The position numbers were made by a program, and so were the translations under genes. A DNA stretch of 64,000 nucleotides from Takakia lepidozioides (Eukaryota; Plantae; Bryophyta): the NCBI GenBank assembly GCA_030704615.1, contig CM060734.1:1922001-1986000 (forward strand), written 5' to 3'. Below the pieces are notes generated by a model that made no database searches, was not told the origin of the DNA, and saw only the letters and a program-made list of their open reading frames with translations. Positions 5,401 through 51,371 of this stretch are shown here, piece by piece (position 1 is the first letter of the stretch; every line of letters begins with the position of its first letter).

Positions 5401-5412
5401 CGTGTACCTGGA

Positions 5413-5546: not shown

Positions 5547-5789
5547 CGTTACTCTGGTATATTCTTGACACATGACTCACATACCGGTTACTCTGCTATA
5601 TTCATCCGGACAGACACATTGTAGAAATGAGACATCAAATTGTAAACAGTGGGCCAATTCCGACAGTTATTCAACAGAATGAAACACAATCACACAGAAG
5701 TGAGGTACGATGGGTTTATTGATCGGACACGATGTCTCACATTTACCAACTGCAGACAAAACTAAGCCCTTCCTCCTTCTATATGGGCT

Positions 5790-12891: not shown

Positions 12892-12893
12892 CT

Positions 12894-12905
12894 TGGTATC
12901 AGAGC
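12894..12905 (+). promoter_or_regulatory. Primer-binding site, tRNA-iMet type
   Basis: TGGTATCAGAGC, 2 nt after the LTR end. Confidence 0.92.
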
Positions 12906-12946
12906 TTAGAGTTCAGTACGCAATCGTCCTTGGGATCGGCCTCATC

Positions 12947-14300: not shown

Positions 14301-14389
14301 TGGACGTGAAAACTTCACCATTTGCGAGATCGATGGAGTGGATCTAATTTTGGGGATGACCTTTTTGAGCAGATCCGGAGTGGTCATAG

Positions 14390-17365
14390 ATGGCCGCAAG
14401 AGAGATGCTGCCGTGTGGGAATGGTGGTGAAGTTTTACGAGTGTCGGAAACGCCCAAACCCGTGGGAGGGCGAATAAACCTTCTGTCAACAAGGGAGTGG
14501 GCTGTGGAGGAGCCACACGAGCCCCAGTTTTTGCTTTACGTAAGACAAGTGAAAGGAGAAGGCGATGGAGAGCCGAGCCCATATTGGATCAAGGGGATCT
14601 TGGAGAAATACCAGGATGTGATGCCGGAGGATTTACCAAGCGGCTTGCCACCGCGAAGAGGACTTGACCACAAGATTGAGGTGATACCGGGATCGGAGCT
14701 GCCTGCCAAGGCGCCCTACCGGTTGAGCCACGGAGAGTTGGTTGAGCTGAAGGCTCAGCTCAAGGATCTAATGTCAAAGGGGTACATCCGGCCGAGTAAG
14801 TCACCTTACGGAGCCCCGGTGCTGTTCGCAGACAAGAAGGATGGGACGCTGCGGATGTGTGTCGATTACATGGCCCTGAATAAGGTGACTATCAAGAACC
14901 GGTACCCTTTGCCAAGGATCAACGACCTCTTCGATCGGTTGGCAGGAGCAAAGTATTTCAGCCGGATCGATTTGCGCTCCGGGTATCATCAGATCCGAGT
15001 GGCGGAAGGAGATGAGGAGAAGACCGCGTACAGGACAAGATATGGTTTGTATGAGTTCTTGGTGATGCCTTTTGGGCTCACCAACGCACCCGCGACCTTT
15101 AGCACGCTAATGAATAGCCTTTTCCAGGAGTGGTTGGATGACTTTGTGATCATATACATCGATGACATACTGGTGTACTCGAAAACAAAGGAAGAGCACC
15201 TGGAGCACCTCAAAAGGGTGTTCCAGAAATTGCGGGAAGGGAAGCTGTATGCCAAAGTTTCAAAGTGCGAATTCGGGGTCACAAAAGTGGAGTTCCTGGG
15301 GCATGTGATTACACAGGATGGGATCAAAATGGATGACAGAAAAGTGAGAGCAATCTTGGACTGGGAGCCTCTGACTTCGGTCCCGGGAGTGCGATCCTTC
15401 CTAGGACTCGCCTCCTATTACCGGAAGTATGTGAGAAATTTTGCCAAGATCACGGGGCCGCTATCAGACCTTCTGTGTAAATCCAAAGTCTCGGTATGGA
15501 ACACCTTTTGTGGCCAAGCTTTTGCCGAGTTGAAGCAGCGGATGGCAGAAGCTCCAGTCGTCAAAATCCCGGAGTTCGACCGTCCATTTGAGATTAATAC
15601 GGATGCGCCGGACTTCGTAATAGGGGGTGTACTCATGCAGGATGGACGTCCAGTGGCTTATGAAAATAAGAAACTGAATGAAGTGGAGCAACGGTGGCCT
15701 ATGCATGAGAAGGAAATGAAGGCGGTGGTGCATTGCTTTGAGCTTTGGCGCCACTATGTTGGTTCCAACCTGGTGAAGGTGTTCACGGACAATGTCACGG
15801 TGAAGTATATTGCCACGCAGCCTAAGTTGTCCCCAAAACAACTTAGGTGGCAAGATACTTTGGCGGTGTTCGACGTGGATATCCAGTACAAACCGGGACG
15901 AGACAATGTGGTGGCCGATGCTTTAAGTAGAAAGCAACAGCTCATGTTGGTGTACAGGGGCGAGACGACGCTCCCAAAGAAGATCCGGAAGGCTTACCGA
16001 AAAGATGAGATGACGAAGTCCGTGATGCGGGTTAAATCGCAGTTCTTCTTGCAAAATCGACTGCTCCGGTATAAGCAAAAGCGTCTCTACGTACCGAAGG
16101 GAGGGATCAGAGATAGTCTCTTGAAAGAATGCCATGATGGCCCGCTTGCGGGCCACGGCGGAGCCAAGCGCACCGCGGCACTCTTGAAGAAAGAGTATTT
16201 CTGGCCCAAACTGAGGGACGAGGCCGAGGAGTATGTCAAGACATGCACCACATGCCAACAAAACTGGAGCGAGTACAAAAAGCAAGCGGGGCTGTTACAA
16301 CCCTTGCCGATTCCAGAGGGGTCTTGGGAAAGTGTCTCGATGGATTTCATGATTGCTATGCCACTGTCAAAAGGATTCAATGCGATCATGGTGGTGGTGG
16401 ATAGGTTCAGTAAAATGGGCCCATCCCCACCAAGGAGACGACAACGGCGCAGGAGACGGGGCGACTTTACTTCAACTCCCGAACTGAAGAGAAACATCGA
16501 ACGCCAACCTCGTCGCCAATTGTGGTTCTCCTTTAGCAGAACGCCTCCAAGCATCATGGACTTCCGAAGGATATTGTCTCGGACCGTGATCCAAAGTTTA
16601 CGAGTAAATTTTGGAGGGCACTTTGGAAGAAGATGGGGACGAGGCTCAAGATGAGCACCACCTTCCAACCTACGACGGACGGCCAAACAGAAAGGGTGAA
16701 TTCCGTGGTGAAGCAAATCTTGCGGAATTACGTGTCGGCAGACCAATCGGACTGGGTGGAGCACTTGGATGCGGCAGAGTTCTGTTATAATAACACAAAA
16801 CACTCCGCAACGGGAGTTTCCCCTTTTGTATTGGTCTATGGAAAAGCACCTCTGGTGCCGACAAGTTGGGCCGCCCAAGACGTTGAGGAACCGGCAGCAG
16901 CAGCGGTGCTGGAAGAACGCGAGCGTTTTTTGAAGCTCGCAAAGTACAACATTGCCAAAGCTAGGAAACGGTATGAACGGCAGGCAAATCGGAAGCGGAG
17001 GGAAGTTAAGTTTGAAGCAGGCATGGAGGCCTGGTTGAACATCAAGAATTTCCGACTACCTCTGGAAGTGAGTCCGAAGTTCGTACCTCCGTATGCGGGA
17101 CCCTTGTGCATGAATGAGGATGTGTATGAATTGGAGGTGCCGGCAAACAGCAAGGTGCATCCGGTATTCCACGTCTCCTTTTTGAAGCCGTACTTCAAAA
17201 ATAAAGCACGTCCAAATCGGCATCAAGTGTTGCGTCCGCCACCTGTGCTGTTGGATCATGAAAATGAACCTGAGTACGAGGTGGAGGCAGTGCTTAAGTC
17301 GAGGAGGTTCAAGAATCGAGAAACGGAGTATCTCGTGAAATGGAAGGGCTATCATCATGTGGAGG
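14390..17365 (+). pseudogene. pol: A pol: RT, RNase H, integrase, chromodomain (frameshifted)
   Basis: [29 protein letters not shown], RNase H TDA.DF.IGGVL, H..P..GH.G/CxxC, SMDF, DGQTERVN, chromodomain EYEVEAVLKSR..EYLVKWKGY cut at 17365. Confidence 0.93.
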
Positions 17366-18439
17366 TCACTAAGTCCCACTAAGCTACCACCACCCCTTGT
17401 GGAGTCACCCCCACCGCAACCCGGTGTGCGGGGCTCCACCTAGTGAGCGCCTCCGCCTCCTTGAGTGCCTTGGGCACTCAAGGGTGCTTCAGCCCCCCGT
17501 ACCTAGCGCTGCCACTGCCCCCACCACAGGGGCAGCGTCTCCTGCATCCCGACCCCCTGCCCTCAAGGCAAAGGGCCGCGACACATACCCCTACCAACAG
17601 GGAGTCGATGTCCTCATCGATTTGTCCATTTTGTAGAAGCGAACATCCAAGTTGTGGCGTCCCACATCAAGGAGTTTGTTTCCATACCATGGCGTCCCAT
17701 GGCAAAGAACCAAACCCCACACTTGACTCTACTCTCCACTAGCTAGTTCGGCCGACTTCCTCCAAGTCCCGGCCAAGGGTGGAGCCTCTCAAGCTCCTCC
17801 CAGTGCACTCTTCTTGGCCTACTCCAAGGCCAATGAATGATCCTCCACGAGGATCGAATCGCCTTACTGCAACAACATTGCTTGCGACCGCTCATGATGC
17901 CACTTTTGGCATCACCTTTTTTTTACTATGAACCAACCGTGCGCCCCAATCACTATAATTGGGTCCGCCTTGGAATGCTGGCCTGAGGTACGGGAACACG
18001 CCGAAGTTGCACTATGTCTTCGTCCCGAGGCTACACAATTATAGTACGTGAACGGAAGCACGTAGCTTCCACGTTAGCCCGCACTACAAGGCAACCCCCT
18101 CGGTAACGCAGTTATAGTACGCGCACGCGCCAGGTGCGCACTAGCACGTGAACTCCCCTAGGAAGGCGCAAGTTTCCTTGCCCCTTGGATGGGAGTCACC
18201 CGATTTCGGCACTACGCAAACACACGATTAATCCAATTTACCTCTTCCACTTTTGTAAGCTAGCATGCATTCTACACACTAGTCAACCATACCATGCATC
18301 AACATTCCAAATAAAATAGGACGCACAACATTTGGAAACCATTTCATTTATAACAAAATTTGTACAATATATCGTGCGCATACATATCGCTACACAACTA
18401 CATCGCTGTCCAAAACCACACAACACATGTGCACACCAC

Positions 18440-18540
18440 ACACTAGTATACCACTAGTCCACCACTAGTCCAGCCACTAGTCCAACCACTAGGCTACAAC
18501 TAGTCAGTCACTAGCTGCCCACTATGGCAGTCACTAGTCC
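18440..18540. repeat. CCACTAGT short tandem array in the B 3'-terminal module
   Basis: About 7 imperfect cactagt units; absent from B-prime. Confidence 0.7.
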
Positions 18541-18805
18541 ACACAATCGCCCCCCTAGCTGGTGCTTAGGTCCCTCTAAGTCCAGGTAGCCACAAGATGT
18601 GATAGTGACCATAGCCTCACTAAGTCCTCCACCACTATCCCTACTACACTCAAACTCGATAGATCAAGAGGCCGGGTGCAAGAGTTGCCCCATCGTTAGT
18701 CGCCGTCTTGCAACCTGTGAACTTGAGCTTGGGATCTCATGTATTGACTCCTATGAGCTTGGCCTCCCATGTCTTGTTAGCTGCCTCCAGTCATGTCCAC
18801 TGCCA

Positions 18806-21250
18806 CTATCCCAAGCAGTGTGGACACAACCAATCTCCGTCAGGAACCTTCTCAAGAGGTGGTGTCAAGCATCCCATATGCCAACCCCTTGAGCATCGAT
18901 CACACACCAGCATGGTGGCTGCCCCTTTGGCAGACCCACAGAGCATGCACCTCAAACCTGCAGGTACCACTGCCAAGTTTGGGTCAACTCTGCCATCGAC
19001 ATTGGGAAGGTGACATGGCGCACAATTACGCACATGGTCCTTCCAAGTCATGCCATCCCGACCCTCCAAGATCAGGACCCCTGAGGGCAACACCTCTCGA
19101 ACCCTCAGAATAACACGCCCTGCAGTAACATCCAGAGTCGTAGGAGCAGTCTGCTGCAAATAAACATAGTCACCAGGGCTAAACCTCCGAACCCCAGGAC
19201 GATATCCTCCACCACGTATAGTGGCATACCTCAACGTATCACGGTGCTGTGCAATGGCAAGGTTCTCAAAAGCCATGGGCATGACTTTCTTGAACAACTC
19301 TGCACGCTGATCACATGCACGTACCCACACGTCCGGATCGTCAAGGTTAAGGACTTGAGCAGTGTCCCTACGAATGGCTGCAGGCAAATCCGGCTCTCGG
19401 CCAAAGAGAAGGAAATATGGTGAGAAGGAGGCAAGTGATGCTTGTTTGCTGAACCTGTAGCCCATGGCTAACCAAGGAACCTGAAGATCCCAATCTCCTA
19501 GGTGTCCCTTCTGCAAGCCATACTTGCGCAAACCCCTCTTCACCGTCTGAACAACTCTCTCTGCTAAGCCATCGGCCTCAGGATGATCCCGAGAAGTGGT
19601 GCGGTGGTCTATCAAGGCTTTATCACACAAAGCCTGAAACTCCCCCAAGAACTCTCTCCCTTGGTCCGTGAGTACCTCAGCTGGAGCACCAAATCGGCTA
19701 AGCACACGATCCAAGAATGCATACGCAGCCCCCTCACTAGCCTTGTCAGGCAATGGAACCAACTCAATCCACTTGGAGAAGTGCTCCACCATCACCAACA
19801 CATATCTGTGGTGGCGCATAGTCAGTGGCAACGGTCCTGCGAAGTCAAGACTCCACCTGTAGCCCAATCCCATGATTGGTAAAGGATGCAACTGTGGTGT
19901 AGGGGCGTTGAATGAAGCACGCACCCTGTCACACACCATGCACCTAGCCACGAACTGTTGCACCTCTGTATGCATACCACGCCACCAATACTGCCCCTGC
20001 AGTAAACTGTGAGTGCGTCGCACTCCAAAATGCCCCAACTCCTCATGGGCATGCCGCACTAACCGTGCACGCTGTGTGGGGTGAGGCACAATCCTCACCC
20101 GACCATCCTCCCACACTCGAAGTAGGTGTATCCCCTCCCACTTGAACCTCTTGGCTCGTTGCAGGATCCGATCCCTCTCCCTGGCAGTCACAGTGGCTGC
20201 CGTGTCTCCCGTGCGGAGGTAGTCCAACACAGCCGAATCCTCATGTATATCTCTGGCACCACCTGGCTCATCACTAGCCTCAGGGTCCTCAGACACTCCG
20301 TCTACAGTCATCCCTGTTGTAGGTCCAACCTGACCTCCCGATGCCAAGATACACAAAAATGCAGATGCGTGCCATCCCGGCACCATCTCCTCGTCCGTCT
20401 CACCATGCCACCGAGCTCCAGTGTCATCCTGCTGGCTCATGCATGGATTGCGACTCAATCCATCCGCATCCCGATTGACCAAACCCGGTCGATGCACAAC
20501 CTGAAAGTCATACTCCTGGAGTATGAGTGCCCACCGTGCAAGCTTCCCCGTAAGCTTGTCTGACTCCATCAACCACTTGAGTGGCTGGTGATCCGTGACA
20601 AGGGTGAAAAGATTGCCGTATAGATAGCACCTGAAGTGTGCCACGGCCCACACTGCAGCTAAGCACTCTCCCTCATATGAGCTGTACTTAGCCTCTGCAG
20701 CGTTGTTCGAGCGGCTAGCATAAGCCACTACGAACTCTCTTCCCTCATCATCCACCTGTGTGAGCACCGCTCCAAGCCCCAGCATGCTCCAATCCGTATG
20801 CAGCTGAAAGGGACGCCCCCTGATAGGTCGTCTCAGGATAGGCGCCGAGGTCAACCTCGCCTTGAGCTCTTGAAAAGCTCGTTCCTGCTCATCTTCCCAC
20901 TGCCACTCCTGGTCCACCTTGGTCAGCTTGGTTAGAGCCTTTGCAATGGTACTAAATCCCTTGACAAACCGTCTATAATAGTTTGCCAACCCCATGAAAG
21001 CTCGAACTCGGCTCACATCCGTGGGGCGTGGAATTTGTGCAATGGCCTCTACCTTAGTCTGCTGTACCCCCAATCCTCCAGGATATATCATGTGACCCAG
21101 ATACTCAATCTGGTTGTGGAAAAACTTGCACTTCCCCGGATGCAACTTCAATCCGTGCGCTCTCAAGCGCTCCAATACCACCTGAACGCATCCACACATG
21201 CTGAGGTGTCTCATGCTCCTCCATCGTAACACTAAAGATGATGATGTCAT
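18806..21250 (-). CDS. pol: B pol C-terminal part: RT thumb, RNase H, HHCC+DDE integrase, PHD finger (18806-18949)
   Basis: LHTDWSMLGLGAVL, YEGECLA, VTDHQPL; HAHEELGHFG..CMVC; SLDFAGP, TDQGREF, DGLAER; C4HC3 CMLC..MLVCDRCSRGWHMGCLTPPLEKVPDGDWLCPHC. Confidence 0.93.
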   Translation of the reverse strand: MTSSSLVLRWRSMRHLSMCGCVQVVLERLRAHGLKLHPGKCKFFHNQIEYLGHMIYPGGLGVQQTKVEAIAQIPRPTDVSRVRAFMGLANYYRRFVKGFSTIAKALTKLTKVDQEWQWEDEQERAFQELKARLTSAPILRRPIRGRPFQLHTDWSMLGLGAVLTQVDDEGREFVVAYASRSNNAAEAKYSSYEGECLAAVWAVAHFRCYLYGNLFTLVTDHQPLKWLMESDKLTGKLARWALILQEYDFQVVHRPGLVNRDADGLSRNPCMSQQDDTGARWHGETDEEMVPGWHASAFLCILASGGQVGPTTGMTVDGVSEDPEASDEPGGARDIHEDSAVLDYLRTGDTAATVTARERDRILQRAKRFKWEGIHLLRVWEDGRVRIVPHPTQRARLVRHAHEELGHFGVRRTHSLLQGQYWWRGMHTEVQQFVARCMVCDRVRASFNAPTPQLHPLPIMGLGYRWSLDFAGPLPLTMRHHRYVLVMVEHFSKWIELVPLPDKASEGAAYAFLDRVLSRFGAPAEVLTDQGREFLGEFQALCDKALIDHRTTSRDHPEADGLAERVVQTVKRGLRKYGLQKGHLGDWDLQVPWLAMGYRFSKQASLASFSPYFLLFGREPDLPAAIRRDTAQVLNLDDPDVWVRACDQRAELFKKVMPMAFENLAIAQHRDTLRYATIRGGGYRPGVRRFSPGDYVYLQQTAPTTLDVTAGRVILRVREVLPSGVLILEGRDGMTWKDHVRNCAPCHLPNVDGRVDPNLAVVPAGLRCMLCGSAKGAATMLVCDRCSRGWHMGCLTPPLEKVPDGDWLCPHCLG

Positions 21251-21956
21251 CTATGTAGCACCGAGCAAAGTCCACCCCTGCTAGAATCCTATCCATGACT
21301 CTCTGAAACTCTGCAGGAGCATTCTTAAGCCCAAATGGTAAGAACCGCCACTGATATAGGCAATCCTTGCCGTGCTCATTGATCCCCCAGAATGCCGTCT
21401 TCTGCTTGTCCGCCTCCTTGATTGGCAACTGGTGATATCCGGATCGTAAATCCAAAGTGCTAAAGGCCTTAGCATGCCCGATGGCATCAAAGATCTCCTC
21501 TGGTGTTGGCATGGCATACTTATCGGACTTGGTCTGACGATTTACAGGCCGGTAATCACCGCACATACGTCTCTCCGTCCAATTGCCATAGACATCCTTC
21601 TTGGCTGGCATCACTGTGGCTGAAGCATACTCTCCACCAGAGAGCTCCACCAAACCTGCCTCCCAGAGATCTTGAGTCCTCATCTGAATCAAAGACCTCT
21701 CCATGTCACTGTATCTATAGGGTCTCCGAAAGATTGGCGTGTCAGTGGCCAACTCAATACGGATCTCTTGACCCTTCAGTGCTCCCAAGTCCTTCAAACT
21801 GAAGGCAAAGCAATTCCTGTAAGCCCTCAGGAACCGCCGTATACGTCGTCTCTCTCCTCCGGTGACAATGGGTCCAATGTCAGGCTCCCAATTGTCCTCC
21901 GTAACTGCAACCTTAAGTCCAGTGGGCTTAGAGGTAGAGGACGCGTCCAGTGGTTG
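21195..21956 (-). CDS. B reverse transcriptase, in frame with the upstream ORF across TAG 21957-21959; frameshift after YIDD
   Basis: [45 protein letters not shown]. No stop between 21956 and 21797 (QPLDASS...FLRAYRNCFAFSLKDLG). Confidence 0.92.
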
Positions 21957-24713
21957 CTATGTTGCAACCTCTTGAGCAGTACTCCCTGCCTGCTCAGTCA
22001 ATGACAAGGCCTCATCCTGCCCCATCATCTCATCCTTGAGGACCTCCTCAACCCGAGAAGAATCCCCAACCTCATCCATCACAGCCGCCTTGGCTGCCAA
22101 CTCCCTCTGAACCTCGAGCACCTCCCACGTGTGCCATGGATGCATGCACCCCGTGGTCCTCACATGCTCGCCCCCACTCACTGCCTGTACCGTCTCGGTA
22201 GGCAGAGAGACCATTGAGGGAAGTGTACTCCGCACTCTGCGTTGCTCAGCCAGAGCCAAGCTGATAATCCAGGTCAAGCAATTGAGATCCATTGCTTGCC
22301 CCAACACTTGACGACGTGATGCCTCAGAAAGAGACGACACCGCCGTGGTACCAGTGGTAAAACCCATTGCCCGCTCACGCTCGTCAGCATTAGGCTCCAC
22401 TAACTGCTGCAACTGAGCATCCCACAGGAGGCCAGGTCCACTATCCCGGAAAGCATGCGATCCTGGGAAGCTGAGCAGTGTAGGTAATGCTGCTCGTGGT
22501 TGACCCACCTTGTTGACCACTGCCAAAGGCGAACGGTCATCGTGTCTCACACGCTGAGACTGCCTCCCTGTGTCCAGAATGTTATCCACTGTGAGATGTG
22601 CTGGCCGCTGCACCCCATCAAATGCACGCTTGAGCAGTGCGGGTGGCATCAAGTTAGTCCACCATAGCCGTGGACGATGAGCCCGTGACCCCACTGTAGC
22701 TGCATCTAGCAACACTGCTGACCCAAGCCACGACCGGACTTGATGCACACTGGCCATCACCCTGGCCCGAGAATCGCCCATCAGTGGCACATTCTCCAAG
22801 ATGTATGCTGGAGATACAGCTTGATGAAGCTGCAAGTGGCGCAAAACCCGCACCATCTCCCAAAACAGACCCGACCTCGAGTCTCGCAATCCATTGCCAT
22901 GCCCGGCTGATGAATGCCCTTGGCAGGGCCAACCTGCCACTACCAGATCAATGGAGCCAACCCGCTCCAAATCCTGCGCCCCCAGCAACGAAATGTCTGC
23001 TGGCAAGGCCTGCTGATATCCACGAATTGCAGACACCGACAACAACTCAGGGTACCGCTGCACCAACTGAGCAACATGGCGAAGTGAAACGCGTCGTGCA
23101 GTCTCATCCCTCTCCACATACAGGTAACGCCGAACTCGTACACCTGCTTGTAACACAGCAGCCAATCCGGTGCTGATCCCGCCAAACAAGTCCAGAAGAC
23201 AAATGCCTTCATCCGGATACTGCCACACAATAGGTGTGGTGTCCAATGGAGACAATTGAGGTGGTCCTGGTGCAATCCCCACACTCTCCTCCTCTCCTGA
23301 CGGTACAAAAGCCTCCACCCAGGCTTGTTGCACCCGTCGATCAGCATCCCGCTGCAAATCCTTGCTCGTGCCCCACAATGGAGTCTGAGCAACCATGGTA
23401 GGCAACTCCGCCATACCATACATGTCATCCTGCTCTCCCGGAGGTGGTACATCCTCTGAATGAGCATTGCCCTCAAGCAACTCTCTAGGCCAACTCACTG
23501 CCGCTGTGAATGCTGCTAGTGTCGGCATCTTGCCTCGCTGGGCAACCGCAACTCCTCCTATGAACGTCACAGGGAGCTGCACACGCCGGCCCTCCCCTGA
23601 CTGCCATGCAGGCCTATAGGAAGCTGACTCCTCCCAAAAATCCAGGGTGAAGCCCATGGGGTACAACACTGCCCCACCAACCAGGACATCGTATGAGACT
23701 GCGTCTGTCACAATGGCCTTGGCTCGCATCACTGAGCCATCTGTAGGGTGATCCGGCCGTAGTCTGATAGCCAACTCACGCCGTGTCATGCCCCGAGCCT
23801 GCTCCGATCCTCCCAGAGACGTCTGTATCTGGAAAGGACAAGGCTCCATATCCGCCTCCGTGAGGCCCAAGCCTGCAATAGCAGCTCTGCCCAGCATCAA
23901 TGGCTGAGCTCCCGAGTCCAACAAGACCCGCAGTGGCCGGTACCTCTTGCCTGCCGGTCCACTCAAACAGAAAATGTCATCCTGGTTGTCTAACATGACA
24001 ACTCCAGGTGTCACCATGGCGCGCTCAATGGCTGGCCTAGCTGGCAGCTCCATCAACCTGGCAGCTGCAGCTTGCCATGGCGCCGCCGTGGCAGTCTTGA
24101 CCCTCAAATCCGAGGATCCCTCCGGCACTACACCTCCCACTATCTCCGCAGAAGATGAAGTAACCTCCCCACTCTCACAGAGTGTAGCTGCCAGCCTGAA
24201 CACCTCAGCTGGTCTTACCCCCGGCGTCGCAATCATGGTAGCCGAGAACAATGGAGCCTGGCACACAGATGTGGCCGCTCCTAGCAGCACACTAGCTGCC
24301 GTAGCCTTGGCAACACTAGGTAGTGGTGCTACCCGTGTAGCTCTCCCCAATGGCATAGTAACCTCCGCCTCGGTAACAGTCGGGCGAGAACTAGGTGCCA
24401 TGGATGGCGTCGACACTGTCTCCGCCAATGTGAATGACTGAGGAAGCCTAGCCTGACGGCTTGCCTCCCCACGCTGTGGATCCAACTCCACCTCTGCACC
24501 TCGTGGCTCAGGAACTCGTGCTGCTCCTCGAGTCACGGCTGCAGCAGACTCCACCTGCACTAGTGGTAGTGCTGCTCCACACATGAATCCCATGCCTCCC
24601 ATATCTCCTCCCTCAGGAGCAGGAGGTGGACCATCCGGCCTTAGAGCCGGTACCACCTGAGCTGTAGCCATGGCAGCGAGCCTCTGCTCTAGCTGCTGAA
24701 GCCGGTTGGCCAT
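21957..24713 (-). CDS. B aspartic protease plus C5 cytosine DNA methyltransferase (DNMT3-like domain ~22260-23210)
   Basis: Protease LLDSGAQ. DNMT motifs: I LDLFGGIS, II VERD, III ADI, IV AGWPCQGHS, VI LENV, VIII AHRPRLWWTNL, IX ERERAMGF, X RRQVLGQAM. Confidence 0.93.
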   Translation of the reverse strand: MANRLQQLEQRLAAMATAQVVPALRPDGPPPAPEGGDMGGMGFMCGAALPLVQVESAAAVTRGAARVPEPRGAEVELDPQRGEASRQARLPQSFTLAETVSTPSMAPSSRPTVTEAEVTMPLGRATRVAPLPSVAKATAASVLLGAATSVCQAPLFSATMIATPGVRPAEVFRLAATLCESGEVTSSSAEIVGGVVPEGSSDLRVKTATAAPWQAAAARLMELPARPAIERAMVTPGVVMLDNQDDIFCLSGPAGKRYRPLRVLLDSGAQPLMLGRAAIAGLGLTEADMEPCPFQIQTSLGGSEQARGMTRRELAIRLRPDHPTDGSVMRAKAIVTDAVSYDVLVGGAVLYPMGFTLDFWEESASYRPAWQSGEGRRVQLPVTFIGGVAVAQRGKMPTLAAFTAAVSWPRELLEGNAHSEDVPPPGEQDDMYGMAELPTMVAQTPLWGTSKDLQRDADRRVQQAWVEAFVPSGEEESVGIAPGPPQLSPLDTTPIVWQYPDEGICLLDLFGGISTGLAAVLQAGVRVRRYLYVERDETARRVSLRHVAQLVQRYPELLSVSAIRGYQQALPADISLLGAQDLERVGSIDLVVAGWPCQGHSSAGHGNGLRDSRSGLFWEMVRVLRHLQLHQAVSPAYILENVPLMGDSRARVMASVHQVRSWLGSAVLLDAATVGSRAHRPRLWWTNLMPPALLKRAFDGVQRPAHLTVDNILDTGRQSQRVRHDDRSPLAVVNKVGQPRAALPTLLSFPGSHAFRDSGPGLLWDAQLQQLVEPNADERERAMGFTTGTTAVSSLSEASRRQVLGQAMDLNCLTWIISLALAEQRRVRSTLPSMVSLPTETVQAVSGGEHVRTTGCMHPWHTWEVLEVQRELAAKAAVMDEVGDSSRVEEVLKDEMMGQDEALSLTEQAGSTAQEVAT

Positions 24714-26127
24714 GCCTTGGTCAACACCCTGACCTCCGCGTCCTTGGCCACGTTGAGCTTGCCCTTGGCCTCGTGGCTGGCCACCTCGTCCTCTCTGGGC
24801 TGCTCCACCTCGCCCCGGCCACCATTGTTCCCTTGGAACTGGCCTGGGCGCAACTCAGGATGCAAACCATAACACTGGGCCTCTCCATGCCCGTGCTTGC
24901 CACAATGCCCACACTGCAACTGTGCAGGCTGTGCATGTGCCGACCCTTTGCCTCCCTCTGGGCAATCCTTCTTGACATGGGGTCCTCCACATGTCCAGCA
25001 CACCACATCCGCCCGTTGTTGGCCAGCAAATGAAGGGAGAGACCCCTGCATCTGAGGTCCTCTCTGCCCTTCCCTGAGCTTCACCTGAGCCCCCTTGTTG
25101 CCTTGAGCACGTTGAGGTAGTGGTTGGCTAGGAGCACCACTACCCCGTGGTGTCTCCTTAGCAAATCCCACCATGACCACTCGTTCCTCCACCATGTTGA
25201 GCTCTATCCGCTCTGCCAGCAAAAACACATTTGCTAAGGTGGGTTGGGCCGCTTGTAGGAGAGTTGCATCCCGCACCCTTCTCCTCAGCTCCTTGTCCAA
25301 TATCCCATACCAGAATTGGACTGCCTGAGCTTCCGTAACCCCTTGGGTTACATTTATCAAGCGCCTCATGCGAGTGAAAGCCTCCCTCAAGCTCTCGGTC
25401 GGCTTCCGTTGGAACTCTTGCAAGCTCCGCAACTTCTCTGTCCTCACCCCTTGGTAGTTCCCTCTCAACTCTTCGAAGAACTCCACAACAGGGTTGAAGG
25501 CAGGCACGGGTGCTAGTGCTGGTGCGGTAGTGGCTTGGGTGGACGTCGTAGCTACTGTACCACCAGTCCCACTAGTTCCACTGCTACTTGCTGAAGCTGC
25601 CGGTGCAGCGGCAGGTGTAGCCACTGCCCTCGTGGCTCTAGTGCCCCTAGTGATGGAGACATAGTCGGGTGACAAGTACATCCTCCACTCCTCGATCTCA
25701 ACCTCATGCCCCCACCTGAACTCATGGTAATCATCCATAGGCGGCCCCTCAAGGTGCTGAAACAGCCCTTTCCATGCCATGAACGGCGTAAATAGTTGTG
25801 GATTGCGCATTTGCTGCAAATCACACCAACTATCAAACTCTTGGATAAAATCATCCAACTCGATGGTGCCCACCCCCAGAGTACCTTCGTGGCCCTTGGT
25901 AGCTCCATACATCTCCTCCATTGTGTCCCACAACAATGACAAGAAACAACTTGCACCGCCGGTATGAGTCCTCCTGATTCACAATCCGAATCAGAACCTT
26001 CCGTGGAAGACACAGGAGGTGAAGGTGGCCTAAACCGCACACCTCGTCTCGTGTACCCACTAGTATCGCTAGTGCTCGAACCGGCACTGTCCCCAGCAAC
26101 TAGTGGCACCTCCGTGTTAACACTCAA
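24689..26127 (-). CDS. gag: B gag (two Zn knuckles, RGG-rich tail; 1-nt frameshifts near 24820 and 25940)
   Basis: LQEFQRKPTESLREAFTRMRRL, CWTCGGPHVKKDC, CGHCGKHGHGEAQC. A shifted frame RGGAAQRGRGGQPRGQG... runs into MANRLQQLE. Confidence 0.8.
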
Positions 26128-26504
26128 CCAGTCATGAACATGTCCCTAACCCCCTCTTCACAAGGTAACCGGGTAGAGAACCTGTTGCGGCTTATGGTTT
26201 GGAATACTAAGTTCCTAACATAGCCTACACCTGTACCTGCATCCACCGCAAGCACTCCTATGGTTGGCTGGTCATCACCTCCAACCTCACCACAGGAGAA
26301 ACAATGATGGTCTGGCTGGTCATCACCCCAGCCTCACCATCGACAGCATGCTCTAGGACTGGCCGGTGATCAAATCCGGACAATCACCTATAAAAACAAG
26401 CGCCCACACAAAACTAGCATGGCGCACAGTCAAGCATGCAGGTATGGAGGGGATCCAAACACAAGAAATCAGAACGACAACTCCCCCACACCAAAGGCCC
26501 CAAA

Positions 26505-26965
26505 GGCCCCACAGCCCCAAAGGCCTCAGGCACGGCCTGTCACAGCCTCTCACAGCCCATCACAGCCCCAAAGGCCATGGGCACAGCCTGTCACAGCCCG
26601 TCACAGCCCCACAGGCCACTGGGCACAGCCTGTCACAGCCCCGCCACAGCCCATCACAGCCCCACAGGCCACTGGGCACAGCCTGTCAAAGCCCCTCACA
26701 GCCAGTCACAGCCCCACAGGCCTCAGGCACGGCCTGACACACAGCACAAGCCCTCACAGCCCGTCACAGCCCCAAAGGCCTCAGGCACGGCCTGTCACAG
26801 CCCCTCACAGCCCGTCACAGCCCCACAGGCCTCAGGCACGGCTTGTCACAGCCCTCACAGCCCCTCACAGCCTCAAAGGCCTCAGGCACGGCCTGTCACA
26901 GCCCGCACAGCCCGTCACAGCCCCACAGGCCACCGGGCACAGCCTGTCACAGCACAGCCCATAGC
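26505..26965. repeat. TCACAGCCC-based minisatellite in the B leader
   Basis: Dozens of cacagcc/tcacagccc units with a higher-order aggcc..ggcac.gcctg structure. Confidence 0.9.
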
Positions 26966-27459
26966 CCATCCATGGCCGCTCTGGCCGTTTAGCCATTTCT
27001 CCAAGGGGTTTAGCCACGCCAAGCTAGGGTTTGTGTCTCTTGGACTCTAGGCTTCTTTCCACCGAGCTATGGCGGCTGTGAGGAAATCAGCAAGGTATTC
27101 TTGCTCTTTCGACTCCCACACACCACCATAGTAGCCCTAAGCCATGAGGTGGTTGCCACAAACCAAGCCTTCTTTCTCACTTAGCCTCCCCAAACACGCC
27201 ACTAAACTCAATGGCAAACAACCAAGCCCTGCTGGTTCCCAGCCCTTGTGAGCACTCATTCAAGCACTCTCCTTGGCCATAACATCTATCTTAGAGCCTA
27301 TTCCAGCCCCCTACACCTGCTGCTTCAAGAGTTGCGCTCCCTTCAAGCTTGAAGTTGAAACCCCAACTCACATAGGCCCTACAAGTGCTTTTCTTTCACT
27401 CCAAGTGGAAACCAGCCCTAGACCTTCCGTTCTAGCTCTCTAAAGCTTGAAAACAAGAG

Positions 27460-27800
27460 CCTCAATGGGCTGAAGGCATGCTCCACACATGCCCCACTCT
27501 CACCATAAGAGAATCAGCTCCTTTGCTTCATTTCTTGCACCCACAAACCTGAAAATACAAGCTTCAGCAGGCTGAAAGCATGCTCCACATGCCCTACAGG
27601 GAAACCAGCCCTTCCTTCCTTTCTTGCACTCCCACACCTGAAAGTGCAAGCCTTCACCAGGCTGATAGCATGCTCCACACATGCATTGCCCTCACATAAA
27701 GGGAAGTCAGCCCTTCCCTCTTCCTTGCTTGCCCTCCAAGCTTGAAGATGGAAGCTTCAATGAGCTGAATACATGCTCCACACATGCAACCTCTTCACAC
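27460..27800. repeat. Four ~95-100-bp degenerate repeats in the B leader
   Basis: gctga..gcatgctccacacatgc at about 27470, 27572, 27662 and 27763. Confidence 0.7.
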
Positions 27801-28981
27801 AAGAGATATCAGCCCCCTATCTTGGCTCCTTGGCTCCTTGATGCTCTCTAAGACAAGACTAAGCACTCCATAGCCTTTGCCAAGCTCCTGAAACCCTAAG
27901 GCTTACATTTCCAGCCACAAGACACTTCTCTTGTGGTGCAAGAGCTCTTCTTCCAAGCTCTGAAACCCTAGGTGCACATTCCATGGCCTTGCCGCACCTC
28001 TTAGCTCTGTTCCAGCCCTGCTCTTGCCATGACAAGAGCCCTCTCAATGCTGAAGCTCGAGATTGAAACCCAATCTCACCATACTCCACAAAGTGCACTG
28101 ATTTGCCCCAAGCCAAATCAGCCCTTTCGCTTGGTCTTGCAATTCTTCACACAATGAAAGCTCGCATTCCCAAGTCCAGTTCTCAGCTTTGCCACCAAAG
28201 CCACTATAACCTGCTCTTGACTGGTCCTCTTCCCAATCGTGCTTGCTCATGCATGTACACAATCTGAAACCATCAAGGTGCTCTGGAATTACCTGCAGCA
28301 TGGTGCTTTCATCTCTGAAGCTGAAGATCGAATGCCAAGGTCTACCACCTCGTAACCCACATCGCCTCCGCTTCTAACAACCAAGAGCTCCACGGTGCTC
28401 CTTGCATAACAACTTGGTTTCTCTCATTCTCAAGCAAAAACCACAAGTGCTACAACTAACTCGTATCTGGCACTCACAGATACGAGCTGATCTTTCTCGA
28501 GTGATAAAGAAGAAGAATACAAGCACGAGCTCACAAATCTGAAGCATAAACTCATGCATATATAACCTCATCACTCAAATACAAGTCAAGCCAAGTGCAC
28601 CCCACGCCATGGGGAATCCACACTACGGCGCCATAGCTAGGCGCGGTGAGGCTCAACTCGAGAAAGATGAGCCTTCCGCGCTTGCCGTGAAGATAACCAC
28701 TCCAGGGCCTAAATCTGCCTTGACCCCTGGATTGACACTTGGGCCAATCCCAAATGTCAATATGTAAAAGCTAGCTATTTCCTAGCTAGTTTCACACTAG
28801 TGGTAAAATAACTTGACAAATACAAGTTTTTGCAATCGGATTCCTGAGCTAGCTAAGCCGGGCTAAGCATGCATTTCCTCCCCCACGATCCAAGGTTGAT
28901 GTCCCCATCAACACTTCTTCTGCTTTTGAGGTCGTCCTTCGAAAGCTGCAACCGCCTCGGATGTGTTCCCCATTTTTGAGG

Positions 28982-29481
28982 TAGGACTCACCATGGGGCG
29001 GAGACCTTGTGGTGGGAGTCGTGGGGAGTTTTGGGACTCATCACGGTCCAATGGGGCCGTGGTGGGTGGGCCAAGACTCACCACGATTCATCGTCAGGAA
29101 TTGAGGGTCTTCGTGGTGGTTCGCCATAAAATGGCATGGTTGTTTGTGAAACCCCCGCGAACAATCACAGAAGTATATATAGGGAGTAGTAACCCCGAGA
29201 ACGGTGCAAGCCCATTGGTGACCAAAAACTAGTGAGTAAGCGAGCGAGCCGGAAAGCGACCAAGGAGTGGGGAGCTATTCCGGACTGCCATCTACCAAAG
29301 GGAATTTCCACTAGGCCTAAATTGGTGGAGGGTCTGGTGGGAGAGTAAAGGGGGACCGTTATGTCCCGGTGAGCAACCGAAGCTCCAAGTTGGCCCGGCG
29401 GCCAGGTTGGAAGTTAGGTGTGCGCATCAAATTGAGTAACTATGACTTGAAGGGGAACTTACCGAAGTGAGGTGTGCGATA
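28982..29481 (+). repeat. Remainder of the A 3' LTR
   Basis: Matches 12392-12891; ends GCGATA (mutated GACA) followed by the TSD. Confidence 0.9.
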
Positions 29482-29486
29482 GGCGG

Positions 29487-36878: not shown

Positions 36879-37219
36879 TGTCGGGCGCATACGTATCGCT
36901 ACACAAATACATCGTTGTCCAAACAAACACCAACACATATATGCACAATAAAGTAGTCTGCCACAATTGCCCCCTAGCTGGTGGATAGGTCCATCTAACT
37001 CCAGATAGCTACAAGATGTAATAGCCACAGCCGTACAAGTCCTCTATCACTGTCCCTATCTGCTCAAACTCATCAACCAAGAGGCCGGGGGTATAAGAGT
37101 AGCCCATCGTTAGTCGCCGTCTTGCAATCTGTGAACTTGAGCCAAGATCTCGTGTGTTCAAGGTCTACTAGTAGTAGCTTGGCCTTGCATTTCTTGTTAG
37201 TCTTCCATGGTTGTACCAC

Positions 37220-40200
37220 TCCCATATCCAATGCAATGTGGACATAACCAATCCCATCCGGAACCATCTCAAGAGGTGGAGTCAAGCATCCCATATGCCA
37301 ACATTCTAGAGCATCGATCACACATCAGCATGGTGGCTGCCCTTTTAGCAGACCCACACAACATGCACCTCAAACCTGCAGATACCACTGCCAGGTTTGG
37401 GTCAATCCTGCCATCGACATTAGGAAGGTGACATGACGCACAAGACGCACATGGTCCTTCCAAGTTATGCCATCCAGACCCTCCAAGAACCAAGACGCCT
37501 GAGGGCAAGACCTCTCGAACCCTCAAAAATAACACGTCCTGCGTCACATCCAGGGTCGTAGGAGCAGTCTGCTGCAGATAGACATAGTCACAGGGTTGAA
37601 TCTCCGAACCCCAGGACGATAGCCCCCACCACGTATAGGAGAATACCTCAACGTATCACGGTGTTGTGCAATGGCAAGGTTCTCGAAAGCCATGGGCATG
37701 ACTCTCTTGCACGCTGCTCACAGCACGTGCCCACACGTCCGGATCGTCAAGGTTAAGAACTGTAGCAGCTTCTCTGCGAATGGAATTGTAGGCAAATCCG
37801 GCTCTGCCAAAAGAGAAGAAAGTATGGTGAGAAAGGAGGCAAGTGATGTTTGCTTGCTGAACCTGTCCCATGGCTAACCAGGGTAACTGAAGGTCCCAAT
37901 CTCCTAGGTGTCCCTTCTGCAAGCCATACTTGCGCAAACCCCTCTTTACTGTCTGAACAACTCTCTCTGCCAAGCCATCGGCTTCAGGATGATCCCGAGA
38001 AGTGGTTGCGGTGGTCTATCAAGGCTTGTCACACAAAGCCTGAAACTCCCCCAAGACCTCTCTCCCTTGGTCCGTGAGTACCTCAGCTGGAGCACCGAAT
38101 CGGCTAAGCACACAATCCAGGAATGCATAGCAGCTCCCTCACTAGCCTTATCAGGCAATGGAACCAATTCAATCCACTTGGAGAAGTGCTCCACCATCAC
38201 CAACACGTACTTGTTGTGGCGCATGGTCAGTGGCAACGGCCCTGCGAAGTCAAGACTCCACCTGTAGCCCAATCCCATGATCGGAAGAGGGTGCAATTGT
38301 GGAGTAGGGGCGTTGAATGAAGCACGCACCCTATCACCACACCATGCACCTAGCCACAAATGTTGCACCTCTGTGTGCATACAACGCCCACCAATACTGC
38401 CCCTGCAGTAGACTATGAGTGCGTCGCACCCCAAAATGCCCCAACTCCTCATGGGCATGCCGCACTAACCGTGCCCGCTGGTGTGGTGAGGCACAATTCT
38501 CACTCGACCATCCTCCCACACTCGGAGCAGGTGTGTCCCCTCCCACTTGAACCCTCTTGGCTCGTTGTAGGATCCGATCCCTCTCCTTGGCAGTCACAGT
38601 GGCTGCAGTGTCTCTAGTGCGGAGGTAGTCCAACACAAGTGAAATCTCATGTATATCTTTGGCGCCACCTTGCTCATTGCTGGCCTCAGGGTCCTCAGAC
38701 ACTTGATCTACAGTCATCCCTGTTGTTGCAGGTCCAACCTGGCCTTCCGCTGCCAAGATACACAGAATGCAGATGCATGCCATCCGGGCACAATCTTCTC
38801 TTCCGTCTCACCATGCCACGAGCTCCAGTGTCATCCTGCTGGCTCGTGCATGGATTGCGACTCAACCCATCTGCATTGTGATTGACCAAACCCGTCGATG
38901 CACCACCTGAAAGTCATACTCTTGAAGGATGAGTGCCCACCGTGCAAGCTTCCCCGTCAGCTTGTCTAACTCCATCAACCACTGAGTGGTGGGTGATCCG
39001 TGACAAGGGTGAAGAGATTGCCGTATAGATAGCACCTGAAGTGTGCACGGCCCACACTGCAGCTAAGCATTCTCCCTCATATGAGCTATACTTAGACTCT
39101 ACAGCATTGTTCGAGCGGCTAGCATAAGCCACTACGAACTCTCTCCCTCATCATCCACCATGGTGAGCACCGCTTCAAGCCCCAGCATGCTCCAATCTGT
39201 ATGCAGCTGAAAAGGAGCCCCCTGATAGGTCGTCTCAAGATGGGCGCCGAGGTCAACCTCACCTTGAGCTCTTGAAAAGCTTGTTCTTGTCATCTTCCCA
39301 CGCCGCTCCTGGCCACAAATGGTCAGCTTGGTTAGAGCCTTTGCAATGGCACTAATCCCTTAACAAAACGTCTTGTAATAGGTTGCTAACCCATGAAAGC
39401 TCGACACTGGCTCACATCCGTGGGGCGTGGAACCTGTGCAATGGACTCTACCTTAATCTGGTCCCCCCAATCCTCCAGGATATATCATGTGACCCAGATA
39501 CTCAATCTGGTTGTGGAAAAACTTGCACTTTCCCGGATTATAACTTCAATCTGTGCGCCCTCAAGCGCTCAAATACCCCCGAATGGTCTCTCATGCTCCT
39601 CCACAGTTAGTAGCACTAAGATGATGATGCATCTATGTAGCACCGAGCAAACTCCACCCTGCTAGAATCCTGTCCAGACTCTTTGAAAACAGCTCAGGAG
39701 GGAGCGTTTTTAAGCCCAAATGGTTAAAAACCGCCAATGGTATAGGCAATCCTTCCCGTGCTCATTGATCCACCAGAAATGCCGTCTTTTGCTTATCCGC
39801 CTCCTTGATCAGCAACTGGTGATATACGGATCGTAAATCCAACGTGCTTAAAGACCTTGGAATGCCCAATGGCATCAAAGATCTCATCTGGTGTCGGCAT
39901 GGCATACCTATCGGACTTGGTCTGACGATTTACAGGCCGGTAATCACCGCACATACGTCTCTCCGTCCAATTGCCCATAGACATCCTTCTTGGCTGGCAT
40001 AACTGTGGCTGAGCATACTCTCCACCAGAGAGCTCTACCAAACCTGCCTCCCAAAGATCTTGAGTCTCATCTGAATCAAAGACCTCTCCATGTCACTGTA
40101 TCTATAGGGTCTCCGAAAGAAGTTGCGTGTCAGTGGCCAACTCAATAAGGATCTCTTGACCCTTCATGTGCTCCCAAGTCCTTAAAATTGAAGGCAAAGC

Positions 40201-42365
40201 AATTCCTGTAAGCCCTCAGGGAACCGCCGTATACTCGTCTCTCTCCTCCGGTGACAATGGGTCCAATTTGTCGGCTCCCAATTGTCCTCCGTAACTGCAA
40301 CTTAAGTCTGTGGGCTTAGAGGGTAGAGCGCGTCCCGTGGTTGCTATGCTGCAACCTCTTGAGCAGTACATCCCTCCTGCTCAGTCAATGACAAGGCCTC
40401 ATCCTGCCCATCATCTCATCATTGAGACCTCCTCATCCCGAGAAGAATCCCCAAACCTCATCCATCACAGTTGCCTTGGCTGTGCCAACCTCCCTATGAA
40501 CCTCGAGCACCTCCCACGTGTGCCATGGATGTCTACACTCCGTGGTCCTCACCGGCTCGCCCCACTCGATGCCTGTACAGTCTTGGTAGGCAAGGAGACC
40601 GTCAAGGGAAGGCACTCCGCACTCTACGTTGCTCAGCCATAGCAAGCTGATAATCCAGGTCAAGCAATTGAGATCCATTGCTTGCCCCAACACTGACGAC
40701 GTGATGCTCAGAAAGAGAAGGCACCGCCGTGGTCCCAGTGAAAAATCCCATAGCCCGCTCTCGCTCGTCGGCATTAGGCTCCACTAACTGTTGCAAACTG
40801 AGCATCCCACAGGAGGCCAGGTCCACCATCCCGAAAAAGCATGGATCCTGGGAGCTTAGCAGTGTAGGTAATTTGGCTGCTCGTGGTTGACCCACCCTGT
40901 TGACCACTGCCAAAGGCGAACGGTCATCGTGTCTCACACGTTGAGACTGCCTCCCTGTGTCCAAAATGCTGTCCACTATGAGGTGTGTTGGCTGCTGCAC
41001 CCATCAAATGAAGCTTGAGCAATGCGGGTGGCATCAAGTTAGTCCCACCATAGCCGTGGACGATGGAGCCCGTGATCCCCCACTACAGCTGCATCCAAGC
41101 AGCACTGCTAACCCAAGCCACGACCAGACTTGATTCCACATGGCCATCACCCTGGCACGAGATCGCCCATCAGTGGCAAATTCTCCAAGATGTATGCTGG
41201 CGATTACAGCTTGATGAAGCTGCAAGTGGCGCAAAATCCGCACCATCTCCCAAAACAGACCCGTCCTCGAGTCTCGCAATCCATTGCCATGCCGGCTCAT
41301 GATGCCTTTGGCAGGGCCAACCTGCCACTACCAGATCAATGGAGCCAACCTGCTCCAAATCCGGCGCCCCCAGCAACGAAATGTGCTGGCAAGGTTGTTG
41401 GTACTCCACGAACTGCAGACACTGGCAACAAGTAGGATACTGCGTGTAACCAACTGAGAAATAGGCGCAGTGAGATGCGTCGTGCAGTCTCATCCCCTCC
41501 ACATACAGATAACGCCTTACCCGCACACCTGCCTGTTCGCCAGCAGCCAATACCGGTGCTGATCCGCCAAACAAGTCCAGAAGGCAAATGCATTTATCCG
41601 GTACTGCACAAATAGGTGTGGTATCCAATGGTGACAAATGAGGGGTCCTGGTGCAATACCTGCACTCTCCTCCTGACGGTACAAAAGCCTATACCCAGGC
41701 TTGTTGCACCCGTCGATCAGCAACTGCTGAAATCCTTGCTCGTACCCCACAATAGAGCGTGAGCAAACCATGGCAGGCAACTCCACCATACCATGCATGT
41801 CATCCTGCTCTTGCTGGAGGTGGGCATCTCTGCATGGGCATTGCCTTCCAGCAACTCTCCAGGCCAACTAACTGCAACTGTAAAGGCGGGCTAGTGTTGG
41901 TATCTGCCCTGTTGGGCAGCCACAATACCCCCAATGAATGTCACAGGGAGCTGTGCACGACGACCAGCCCCTGACTGTCATCCAGGCCTGTAGATGCTGA
42001 CTCCTCCCAAAAGTACCAGGGTGAAGACCCATGGGTATAACACCTGCACCACCACGAGGACATCGTAAGAGAACCGCATCTGTCACAATGGCCTTGGCTC
42101 GCATCACTAAGCCATCTGTAGGGTGATCCGGTTGCAGTCTAATGGCCAACTGATGCCGTGTCATGCCCCGAGCCTGCTCTGATCTCCCAGAGATGTCTGT
42201 ATCTGAAAAGGACAAGGCTCCATATCGCCTCCATGAGGCAAACTTGTAATAGCAGCTTGCCCAACATCAGTGGTCTGAGCTCCGAGTCCAACAAGACCCG
42301 CAGTGGCCGGTACTTCTTTGCCTGCCGGTCCAGCTCAAAGATAAAATGTCATGGTTGTTAACAAG
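37220..42365 (-). pseudogene. B-prime PHD-integrase-RNaseH-RT-DNMT-protease, indel-riddled
   Basis: Fragments ICLLDLFGG, DLVVAGWPCQ, GLFWEMVR, LGQAMDLNC, RMCGDYRPVN, WSLDFAGP, CMLCGSAK..CDRC. Confidence 0.88.
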
Positions 42366-50021: not shown

Positions 50022-50852
<831 letters not shown>

Positions 50853-51371
50853 TCAAACTCACGCGCAGAGACGACAACTAAATCTGCGCGCACAGCCCAT
50901 GGCAACAGCAGGGCCAGATGGACTCCTGCCCCAAAATATATATTATAATAGTGCTAAAACAAACATTGTATCTAGCTTAGCACCAGCACACTAGATAACG
51001 GTCATCTCTCTCGAGTGATAAGAAAGCTAAAAGACACACTGTTCACACAAGAAACAACATGAATCCAACAGCATCACTCTTTAAAATAGAAGTCGAGCCA
51101 GGGGCACCCCAAGCTATGGGGACTCCACCCCACAACAACCTATCCTCCCATCATAAGCACACTCAGCTTCTAAACGCATGAAGGAGCTCGGTCGCGCAGG
51201 CTCAACTCGAGAGAGATGAGCTGCGCGACTGCCGCTCTCGTGAAGATAAGACGGGTCAGGTGTCAAACTAAACTTGACACCTGATTTAACACTTGACCTA
51301 AATCCAAGTGTTAAATACAAATAACTAGCTTTATTCTAGCTAGTTTCACACTGTGCTTATTTAACTTGACA

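Follow-up and report, generated by a model that had tools for sequence, protein, structure and literature searches.

A Ty3/Gypsy element carrying a DNMT3-type domain

We analysed a stretch of 64,000 nucleotides (nt) of the Takakia lepidozioides genome, hereafter the window (assembly GCA_030704615.1, contig CM060734.1, positions 1,922,001 to 1,986,000), in which the open reading frame (ORF) of a retroelement polyprotein had been predicted from the letters alone to encode an intact DNMT3-like C5 cytosine methyltransferase (DNMT) between protease (PR) and reverse transcriptase (RT). The ORF belongs to copy 1, a whole Ty3/Gypsy element of 10,449 nt on the minus strand (18370..28818), whose bounds were set by joints in contigs of sequencing runs. 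Read from 28818 to 18370, its domains follow in the order Gag, PR, DNMT, RT, RNase H (RH), integrase (INT) and PHD finger; the Ty3/Gypsy order Gag-PR-RT-RH-INT is present, with an HHCC and DDE integrase. Copy 1 is a damaged member of an abundant, high-copy Ty3/Gypsy family bearing its own DNMT, and is inserted in the long terminal repeat (LTR) of another Gypsy element.

All the parts of copy 1 given here lie on the minus strand. A long 5' untranslated region containing a tandem array of about 51 nt units (26510..26953) precedes Gag (24813..25921), which has two Cys/His knuckles and a weak PF03732 match under the cut-off (E 0.002), GAG matches being found in relatives. The protease (23565..23984) was recognised by its LLDSGA motif at 23924-23907; no Pfam match was obtained for this region in the window scan, and relatives carry PF13650/PF13975. 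The DNMT domain (22245..23210) is followed by an in-frame stop with its CAA CCA context (21951..21959) and by the RT (21210..21956, PF00078 E 2.8e-20) with YIDD at 21257-21246. The RT C-terminus and RNase H (20410..21175, PF17917 E 9.1e-36) and the integrase with its H2C2 zinc finger and rve core (19030..20245, PF17921 and PF00665) come next. A PHD finger (18806..18949, PF00628 E 1.2e-10) is fused to the integrase C-terminus and then the frame stops. The closest solved relatives of this finger are those of CHD4, KDM5B, PHF12, KDM5A and ATXR5, PHD fingers of a type that reads the unmodified H3 tail, unmethylated at H3K4.

Two breaks interrupt the coding sequence. The Gag frame is split by one base near 24812, and the RT frame is broken near 21209-21240, with loose contig ends at 21209. 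In contigs of four runs, other copies differ from copy 1 at both positions, the break near 24812 not being found in them; the two breaks are thus private to copy 1. We rejected the idea that gag and protease are joined by a programmed frameshift, relatives being continuous there and other copies lacking the break; in Marchantia relatives, Gag-PR-DNMT is a single protein. The ORF extends stop-to-stop from 24854 to 21957 (965 amino acids, aa), and the Met at 24713 formerly taken as its start is not the true one, because Gag lies upstream, severed by the break near 24812.

The methyltransferase motifs quoted in the original prediction were all recovered after the protease, in canonical order: I at 23195-23166, II at 23117-23106, IV (GWPCQG) at 22934-22917, VI at 22799-22788, VIII at 22682-22650, IX at 22382-22359 and X at 22304-22287. 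The PF00145 profile matched the domain with E 1.7e-12 and 47.8 bits for a cut-off of 22. The DNMT3-like character also held, the best solved relatives being DNMT3A/B by sequence and by fold. A sequence search against solved structures gave E 9.9e-12 for DNMT3A, 3.9e-6 for a DRM-type enzyme and 4.6e-4 for M.HhaI, and a profile of 29 sequences gave 1.3e-24, 2.3e-16 and 2.9e-8 for DNMT3, DRM-type and M.HhaI, with DNMT2-type RNA enzymes far lower (6.5e-6). The structure predicted from a 57-row alignment (pLDDT 93.5) retrieved DNMT3A first with Foldseek (E 2.2e-20) and aligned to 6brr_A with VIA-align at Z 29.0 (rmsd 2.5, 273 aligned), compared with Z 24.2 for M.HhaI. The model thus predicted has a DNMT3-type fold, and its motif order is unpermuted, without the DRM-type circular permutation.

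Of 227 homologues spanning the four catalytic sites, 213 retain the C, E, R and R. The profile alignment to DNMT3A is interrupted in the target-recognition region, and the site of the CpG-reading Arg, placed by eye, is mostly Y/F (137 of 230). We infer that the target sequence of the enzyme would not necessarily be CG. No chromatin reader was detected within the DNMT chain in the Pfam scan; the PHD finger sits on the integrase.

The in-frame stop between methyltransferase and reverse transcriptase

The DNMT frame closes at TAG 21959-21957 and the RT continues in the same frame. The predicted order of DNMT between protease and RT stands, but not the single polyprotein running into RT, since the TAG intervenes: the original prediction had missed that an in-frame stop parts the DNMT from RT, so that it goes with Gag and lies outside the RT polyprotein. 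In both window copies the stop reads TAG CAA CCA and fits UAG-CAR-YYA, which is the type I (TMV/tobamovirus) readthrough motif (PMC3542737).

The junction was surveyed on 80 loci, the best among 178 metagenome loci that had been confirmed; 59 of the 80 contain both the end of the DNMT and the beginning of the RT. DNMT and RT share one frame in 41 of these 59 and none of the 41 is stop-less, while CAR directly follows the stop in all 33 single-stop loci. Walking back from the RT, TAR-CAR was met in 53 of the 59 loci, against a background of 3.3% (611/18,402 TAR sites). CAR is kept across linkers that otherwise no longer align, and the exact UAG-CAR-YYA motif occurs in both window copies and in loci L006, L021, L022 and L033. 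Among 247 DNMT-bearing proteins, 54 of the Gag/PR-DNMT type end right after the DNMT, 29 run onward into RT, 101 have the DNMT between RNase H and integrase, 61 contain the DNMT alone and 2 are arranged otherwise. Four Marchantia or Sphagnum gene models link DNMT to RT solely by jumping the junction. Unlike the stop-bearing elements, algal relatives are continuous over it.

Given this motif and its conservation, UAG-CAA-CCA probably gives readthrough into RT and integrase. As with the tobamovirus signal, a polymerase lies downstream of the same exact motif. SIRE1 also uses a type I readthrough motif. The stop of the Takakia element differs in that it follows the protease and an accessory enzyme, not the Gag end, in that its readthrough is predicted, and in that the moss-type family departs from the motif at +6.

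Part of the survey speaks against readthrough. The 53 TAR-CAR loci are not independent: most come from one Sphagnum-type family, and the motif is carried by about five families altogether. In the Sphagnum-type family, 47 of 58 sites read CAA CCC ATG, which misses the final A of the motif (+6) and supplies an in-frame ATG, and exact CARYYA is found in just 4 of the 33 single-stop loci. In addition, the context expected to allow readthrough in Candida Tca2 did not do so in a yeast reporter (PMC2194720). Folding of the RNA 3' of the stop gave z -2.6 for copy 1 alone and -0.55 to -3.3 over 10 sequences, with a weak consensus stem (-0.33 kcal/mol, 5 pairs), and was not counted in favour of readthrough. 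Nor was a contig crossing the stop region taken as a sign of expression, as the run it comes from, possibly RNA, may be DNA.

These data bear on another route to Pol, in which the DNMT would act as under readthrough but RT and integrase would be made by reinitiation, from a spliced RNA or from a junction promoter, CAR being incidental. The ATG three codons past the stop in the Sphagnum-type family, the weak downstream stem and the precedent of Tca2, with its junction promoter and non-canonical bypass (PMC2194720), all suit such a route. Neither window copy has this ATG, however, nor do L006, L021, L022 and L033, yet CAR is kept there over unalignable linkers, and the stop and the RT remain in frame. 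Moreover, the first Met 3' of the stop in copy 1 is codon 85, past the conserved RT-proximal sequence at codon 23, so that in this family simple reinitiation would truncate the RT. We consider a different route to Pol unlikely; even if Pol were made in that way, the DNMT remains on the Gag side.

Relatives, selection and element ends

A protein search returned 71 matches, with many from Marchantia (up to 76% identity) and others from Calypogeia (76%), Sphagnum, Klebsormidium (KFL_009030040, 46%) and Monoraphidium; longer matches added Closterium and Cymbomonas, and Scenedesmus is also named. At E<=1e-30, 268 clusters (50% identity) match. The DNMT occupies the same position in liverworts, Sphagnum, Klebsormidium and Closterium, and the view of the domain as a family trait was borne out, with DNMT-bearing relatives across green plants. 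In a large green-algal branch (Scenedesmus, Monoraphidium and Cymbomonas named; P0079, P0089, P0092 and 98 more), the DNMT lies between RNase H and integrase and a PHD finger is terminal, an arrangement of which we found no description in the literature covered.

The DNMT tree comprised 173 rows, that is 172 of 214 proteins and the window copy, all retroelement-type domains, with a midpoint root; matches spanning less than 270 or more than 420 aa, including the Klebsormidium model P0060, were omitted. The window copy grouped with Marchantia and Calypogeia (15 rows, support 1.0) within a 38-row clade (0.95) made of proteins ending after the DNMT, of fragments and of the four junction-jumping gene models. 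In the RT tree (82 rows, one outgroup), the same stop-bearing elements cluster (7 rows, 0.93), and a clade of 69 rows (0.98), with weak inner nodes, includes the window and Klebsormidium elements together with chlorophyte types. No host DNMT3 or DRM was identifiable among the top 150 cluster representatives. With relatives in Marchantia, Calypogeia, Sphagnum, Closterium and chlorophytes, the lineage is, on sequence grounds, old and not a one-off capture.

Selection was estimated from non-synonymous and synonymous differences (pN, pS). Comparing the window DNMT with 47 loci gave pN 0.21 and pS 0.75 (saturated in 33 pairs), and 0.17 and 0.74 for the RT; the DNMT ratio is about 0.09 on the 14 unsaturated of the 47 distant pairs. 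Between the two window copies, pN/pS is 0.38 for DNMT, 0.23 for RT, 0.24 for RH, 0.16 for INT and 0.59 for the tail. The DNMT is thus under purifying selection, weaker than that on the RT. A recent chance capture of a host DNMT3 or DRM, carried as a passenger in neutral decay, would account for the broken state of both window copies and for the looser constraint on the DNMT than on the RT. This we hold to be extremely improbable: pN falls far short of pS, the domain lacks the circular permutation of DRM enzymes, and the 268 clusters and the shared position from liverworts to Klebsormidium do not fit a recent event.

The original prediction knew of no described case with this full architecture, but the architecture matches a published kind, split repeats included. 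KnitGypsy-Dnmt3 of Klebsormidium nitens is a Gypsy element with a DNMT inside its Pol ORF and split repeats (de Mendoza et al. 2018, PMC5890265), and is called 'Gypsy-DNMT3' of streptophytes in bioRxiv 10.64898/2026.05.21.726589. KnitGypsy-Dnmt3 and the Takakia element share the Gypsy domain set, an unpermuted, intronless DNMT3-type domain before the RT, DIRS-like split repeats and purifying selection, and the Klebsormidium protein KFL_009030040 (46% identity, E 1.8e-54) has the order PR-DNMT-RT-RH-INT. The Ka/Ks of the KnitGypsy-Dnmt3 DNMT is below 0.2 (PMC5890265), the value of 0.38 between the window copies being above it and distant pairs giving about 0.09. The main text on KnitGypsy-Dnmt3 makes no mention of a PHD finger or a protease (PMC5890265). 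The same article places the capture in the K. nitens lineage; judged from the relatives found here, it lies across green plants and not just in that lineage. Unlike KnitGypsy-Dnmt3, with its DNMT within the Pol ORF, the Takakia element has an in-frame UAG-CAR between Gag-PR-DNMT and RT, and its host is a land plant. Because the stop is present in 41 of 41 in-frame loci and in both window copies, the window element is a stop-bearing variant and does not belong to the same family as KnitGypsy-Dnmt3.

SymbioDIRS-Dnmt3 belongs to the DIRS class, with a tyrosine recombinase. It is likewise a retroelement-borne DNMT3 with split repeats, and its enzyme methylates CG de novo in yeast (PMC5890265); it is an independent capture, and the window element has instead a DDE integrase and 4-nt target duplications. 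In Gypsy-7a_cRei of Chlamydomonas, too, the Gypsy polyprotein includes a PHD finger, for which an effect on the insertion site has been proposed, with no methyltransferase listed in the text available (bioRxiv 10.1101/2022.06.16.496473), and PHD fusions to transposable elements are treated in general in bioRxiv 10.1101/2021.11.30.470311. The EpiLTRs of Cymbomonas and Euglena, also LTR elements, combine a cytosine DNMT with a chromatin reader, but their DNMT is sister to DNMT4 and comes with DAM and a chromodomain, and their authors set them apart from Gypsy-DNMT3 (bioRxiv 10.64898/2026.05.21.726589). That preprint and PMC12344493 cite the streptophyte type, no bryophyte case being named in the portions available. 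Likewise, the available text of PMC5784723 gives five host DNMTs in Marchantia and lists no element-borne one, and that of Neumann 2019 (PMC6317226), relevant to a Phygy/Selgy placement, mentions neither PHD nor methyltransferase nor Marchantia. In the literature covered, which left out most subscription papers, figures and bioRxiv supplements, we found no land-plant case of a Gypsy-borne DNMT3 and no mention of the stop. The DNMT capture itself is already published; the land-plant range, the chlorophyte second-position variant and the conserved stop placing the enzyme on the capsid side appear to be undescribed in the searchable literature.

Two complete LTRs flanking the body were not found in these elements; split repeats were found instead, with TG...CA ends and 4-nt duplications. 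In relatives the repeats are arranged A1...B1-A2-B2, with a purine tract before B1 and 4-nt duplications, the full pattern being seen in L074 and L077. Copy 1 begins with repeat A1, the 5' half of the split repeat (28502..28818), placed by joints 18539-18548 to 28502-28504 and laid out alike in L074, L077 and L044. It ends with a single repeat B (18370..18546), directly preceded by a purine-rich tract, likely the polypurine tract (18547..18560), whose motif relatives share. The element starts TGTC, its CA-type end is altered by one base, and the target duplication TATT lies at 28819-28822 and 18366-18369; empty-site joints link 18353-18367 to 28819-28822 in contigs of sequencing runs.

The reduced A1...B form is that of the window copies and of 6 of 8 inspected loci, while reads of copy 1's family contain both the B-A and the A-B joints of fuller copies. 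The single terminal B likely arose by recombination between B1 and B2. The B1-A2 junction reads CA-NN-TG in 7 of 80 loci, and in one reading a cDNA with B+A at each end would circularise and the integrase would open the inner junction. A 10-bp hairpin at 28450-28490 (minus strand) lies just inside repeat A1, at the expected primer-binding site. No tRNA-type primer-binding site was seen by eye near these positions, so self-priming is possible.

Copy 2 runs from protease to PHD finger on the minus strand (36879..42363), with its DNMT at about 40640-41600 and TAG CAA CCA kept at 40346; its 5' part is missing, the copy running into an assembly gap (N run 42366-42865). It has the same domain at the same position as copy 1, to which it is 88% identical over 5531 columns, with many indels. 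The domain had been described as intact: this is true of copy 1 but not of copy 2, whose frame is shattered (206 gap columns). A third, non-autonomous relative (47505-51371, minus strand) comprises an A1-type repeat (51016..51371, 71%), a captured exon, unassigned ORFs and a pre-gag region, and is cut by the LTR of another element at 47478, its pre-gag piece resuming at 47772-47505. The captured exon (50655-50843, 63 residues) encodes part of a monodehydroascorbate reductase, with identities of 92% to Riccia, 90% to Calypogeia, 84% to Diphasiastrum and 79-80% to Sphagnum. Taken by themselves, these 63 residues of a captured piece would point to a liverwort as the likely host.

Elsewhere in the window, another Gypsy family, which gave no methyltransferase match, is present in several copies at 12160-17584, 33225-34358 and 42866-47478; an LTR of this family is the host site of copy 1. 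LINE-like endonuclease and RT fragments lie beside Gypsy LTRs at 11240-12376 and 29427-30902 (minus strand; endonuclease E 1e-4). At 57385-59758 (minus strand), degenerate PPR-like repeats alternate with a WWDN-type motif. This stretch has many stops and several copies in tandem, and may represent a PPR array that has decayed or is mobile. Three in-frame ORFs at 3242-5548 (minus strand), each parted from the next by one stop, contain Cys/His motifs and stretches resembling a transposase. Finally, two related ORFs at 5790-6491 (minus) and 6855-7487 (plus) stand face to face as an inverted pair, with arms 6036-6104 and 7191-7259.

Proposed role of the methyltransferase

We lean towards a reading in which Gag-PR-DNMT is abundant, Pol is made by readthrough and the DNMT methylates new cDNA. 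Protease and DNMT would be made at the level of Gag, the capsid protein, and RT, RNase H and the integrase-PHD fusion, at a few percent, by readthrough of the likely leaky UAG-CAA-CCA. The protease would cut the DNMT free inside the particle, leaving many DNMT copies per particle. The enzyme would then methylate the cytosines of the newly made cDNA, either ahead of integration or during it, the new copy arriving marked like host DNA, and the PHD finger would steer integration, likely to nucleosomes unmethylated at H3K4. Methylation of new cDNA by an element-borne DNMT was already proposed in PMC5890265; packaging with Gag and cDNA methylation would both agree well with the Gag-side layout. Also in favour of this reading, the summed contig depth of the DNMT relative to RT-RH-INT is 0.64-1.10 over 4 runs, like that of Gag (0.65-1.91), though contig depth is a rough guide and gives no copy number.

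Several results temper this reading. Between the window copies, constraint on the DNMT (0.38) is looser than on the core enzymes RT, RH and INT (0.23, 0.24 and 0.16), and in close moss-type copies it shows 0.56 against 0.39 for RT, both inflated by decay. Most copies are decayed, stop-free ones making up 7 of 48 unbroken DNMT matches and 10 of 42 RT matches. The metagenome loci were chosen by their DNMT and cannot show the share of DNMT-less members; the trees contain no host DNMT3 or DRM and their deep nodes are weak. Lastly, the KnitGypsy-Dnmt3 enzyme, the sole tested relative, showed no methylation in yeast, a result its authors call inconclusive (PMC5890265).

This last result would agree with another function for the retained domain, either non-catalytic, as a nucleic-acid binder within the particle, or directed at RNA, with the RNA of the element as methylation substrate. 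A Gag-like stoichiometry would suit a structural function, and a role on RNA was suggested for LINE DNMTs (PMC5890265). Such a non-catalytic or RNA-directed function is nevertheless very unlikely in our view, given the catalytic residues kept in 213 of 227 homologues, the match to DNMT3 (1.3e-24) far above that to DNMT2-type enzymes (6.5e-6), and the CG methylation by DIRS-borne DNMT3 relatives (PMC5890265).

The enzyme might also act mainly in trans, entering the nucleus to methylate its own family or other host DNA, and so damping transposition, in a self-limiting manner, or rival elements. Output at Gag level would exceed the apparent need of one 10-kb cDNA, and self-limitation was raised in PMC5890265. 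The observed/expected CpG ratio, which is lower in the two copies (0.52 and 0.51) than in the adjacent Gypsy (0.85), points the same way, but region 48000-57000 is just as CpG-poor (0.46); the contrast is therefore unspecific, and CpG depletion was dropped as a trace of self-methylation. As the fusion to Gag and protease favours packaging and the DNMT chain has no chromatin reader, the PHD being on the integrase, we regard action in trans as fairly unlikely, and retain methylation of the new cDNA as the preferred role.

A wider scenario can be put forward tentatively, as possible though doubtful. An ancient green-plant lineage, from chlorophytes to liverworts and mosses, would have kept one DNMT3-type enzyme, and its land-plant branch would have moved the recoding site downstream of that enzyme. 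Particles loaded with active DNMT at capsid stoichiometry would deliver methylated cDNA, and the PHD-guided integrase may open a two-repeat circle at CA-NN-TG.

For annotation, these elements inflate DNMT counts in bryophytes, gene models splicing across the stop. The position of the stop bears on dose: an enzyme made with the structural protein, and not with the RT, predicts many molecules per particle and a particle-bound substrate. Why transposons carry the silencing enzyme of their host has been open since 2018, the known cases being in algae that are hard to manipulate. With a near-identical architecture in Marchantia polymorpha, the question reaches a plant with genetics and methylomes and, if the reading is true, the copies in Marchantia would allow retrotransposon self-methylation to be tested in a genetic model.

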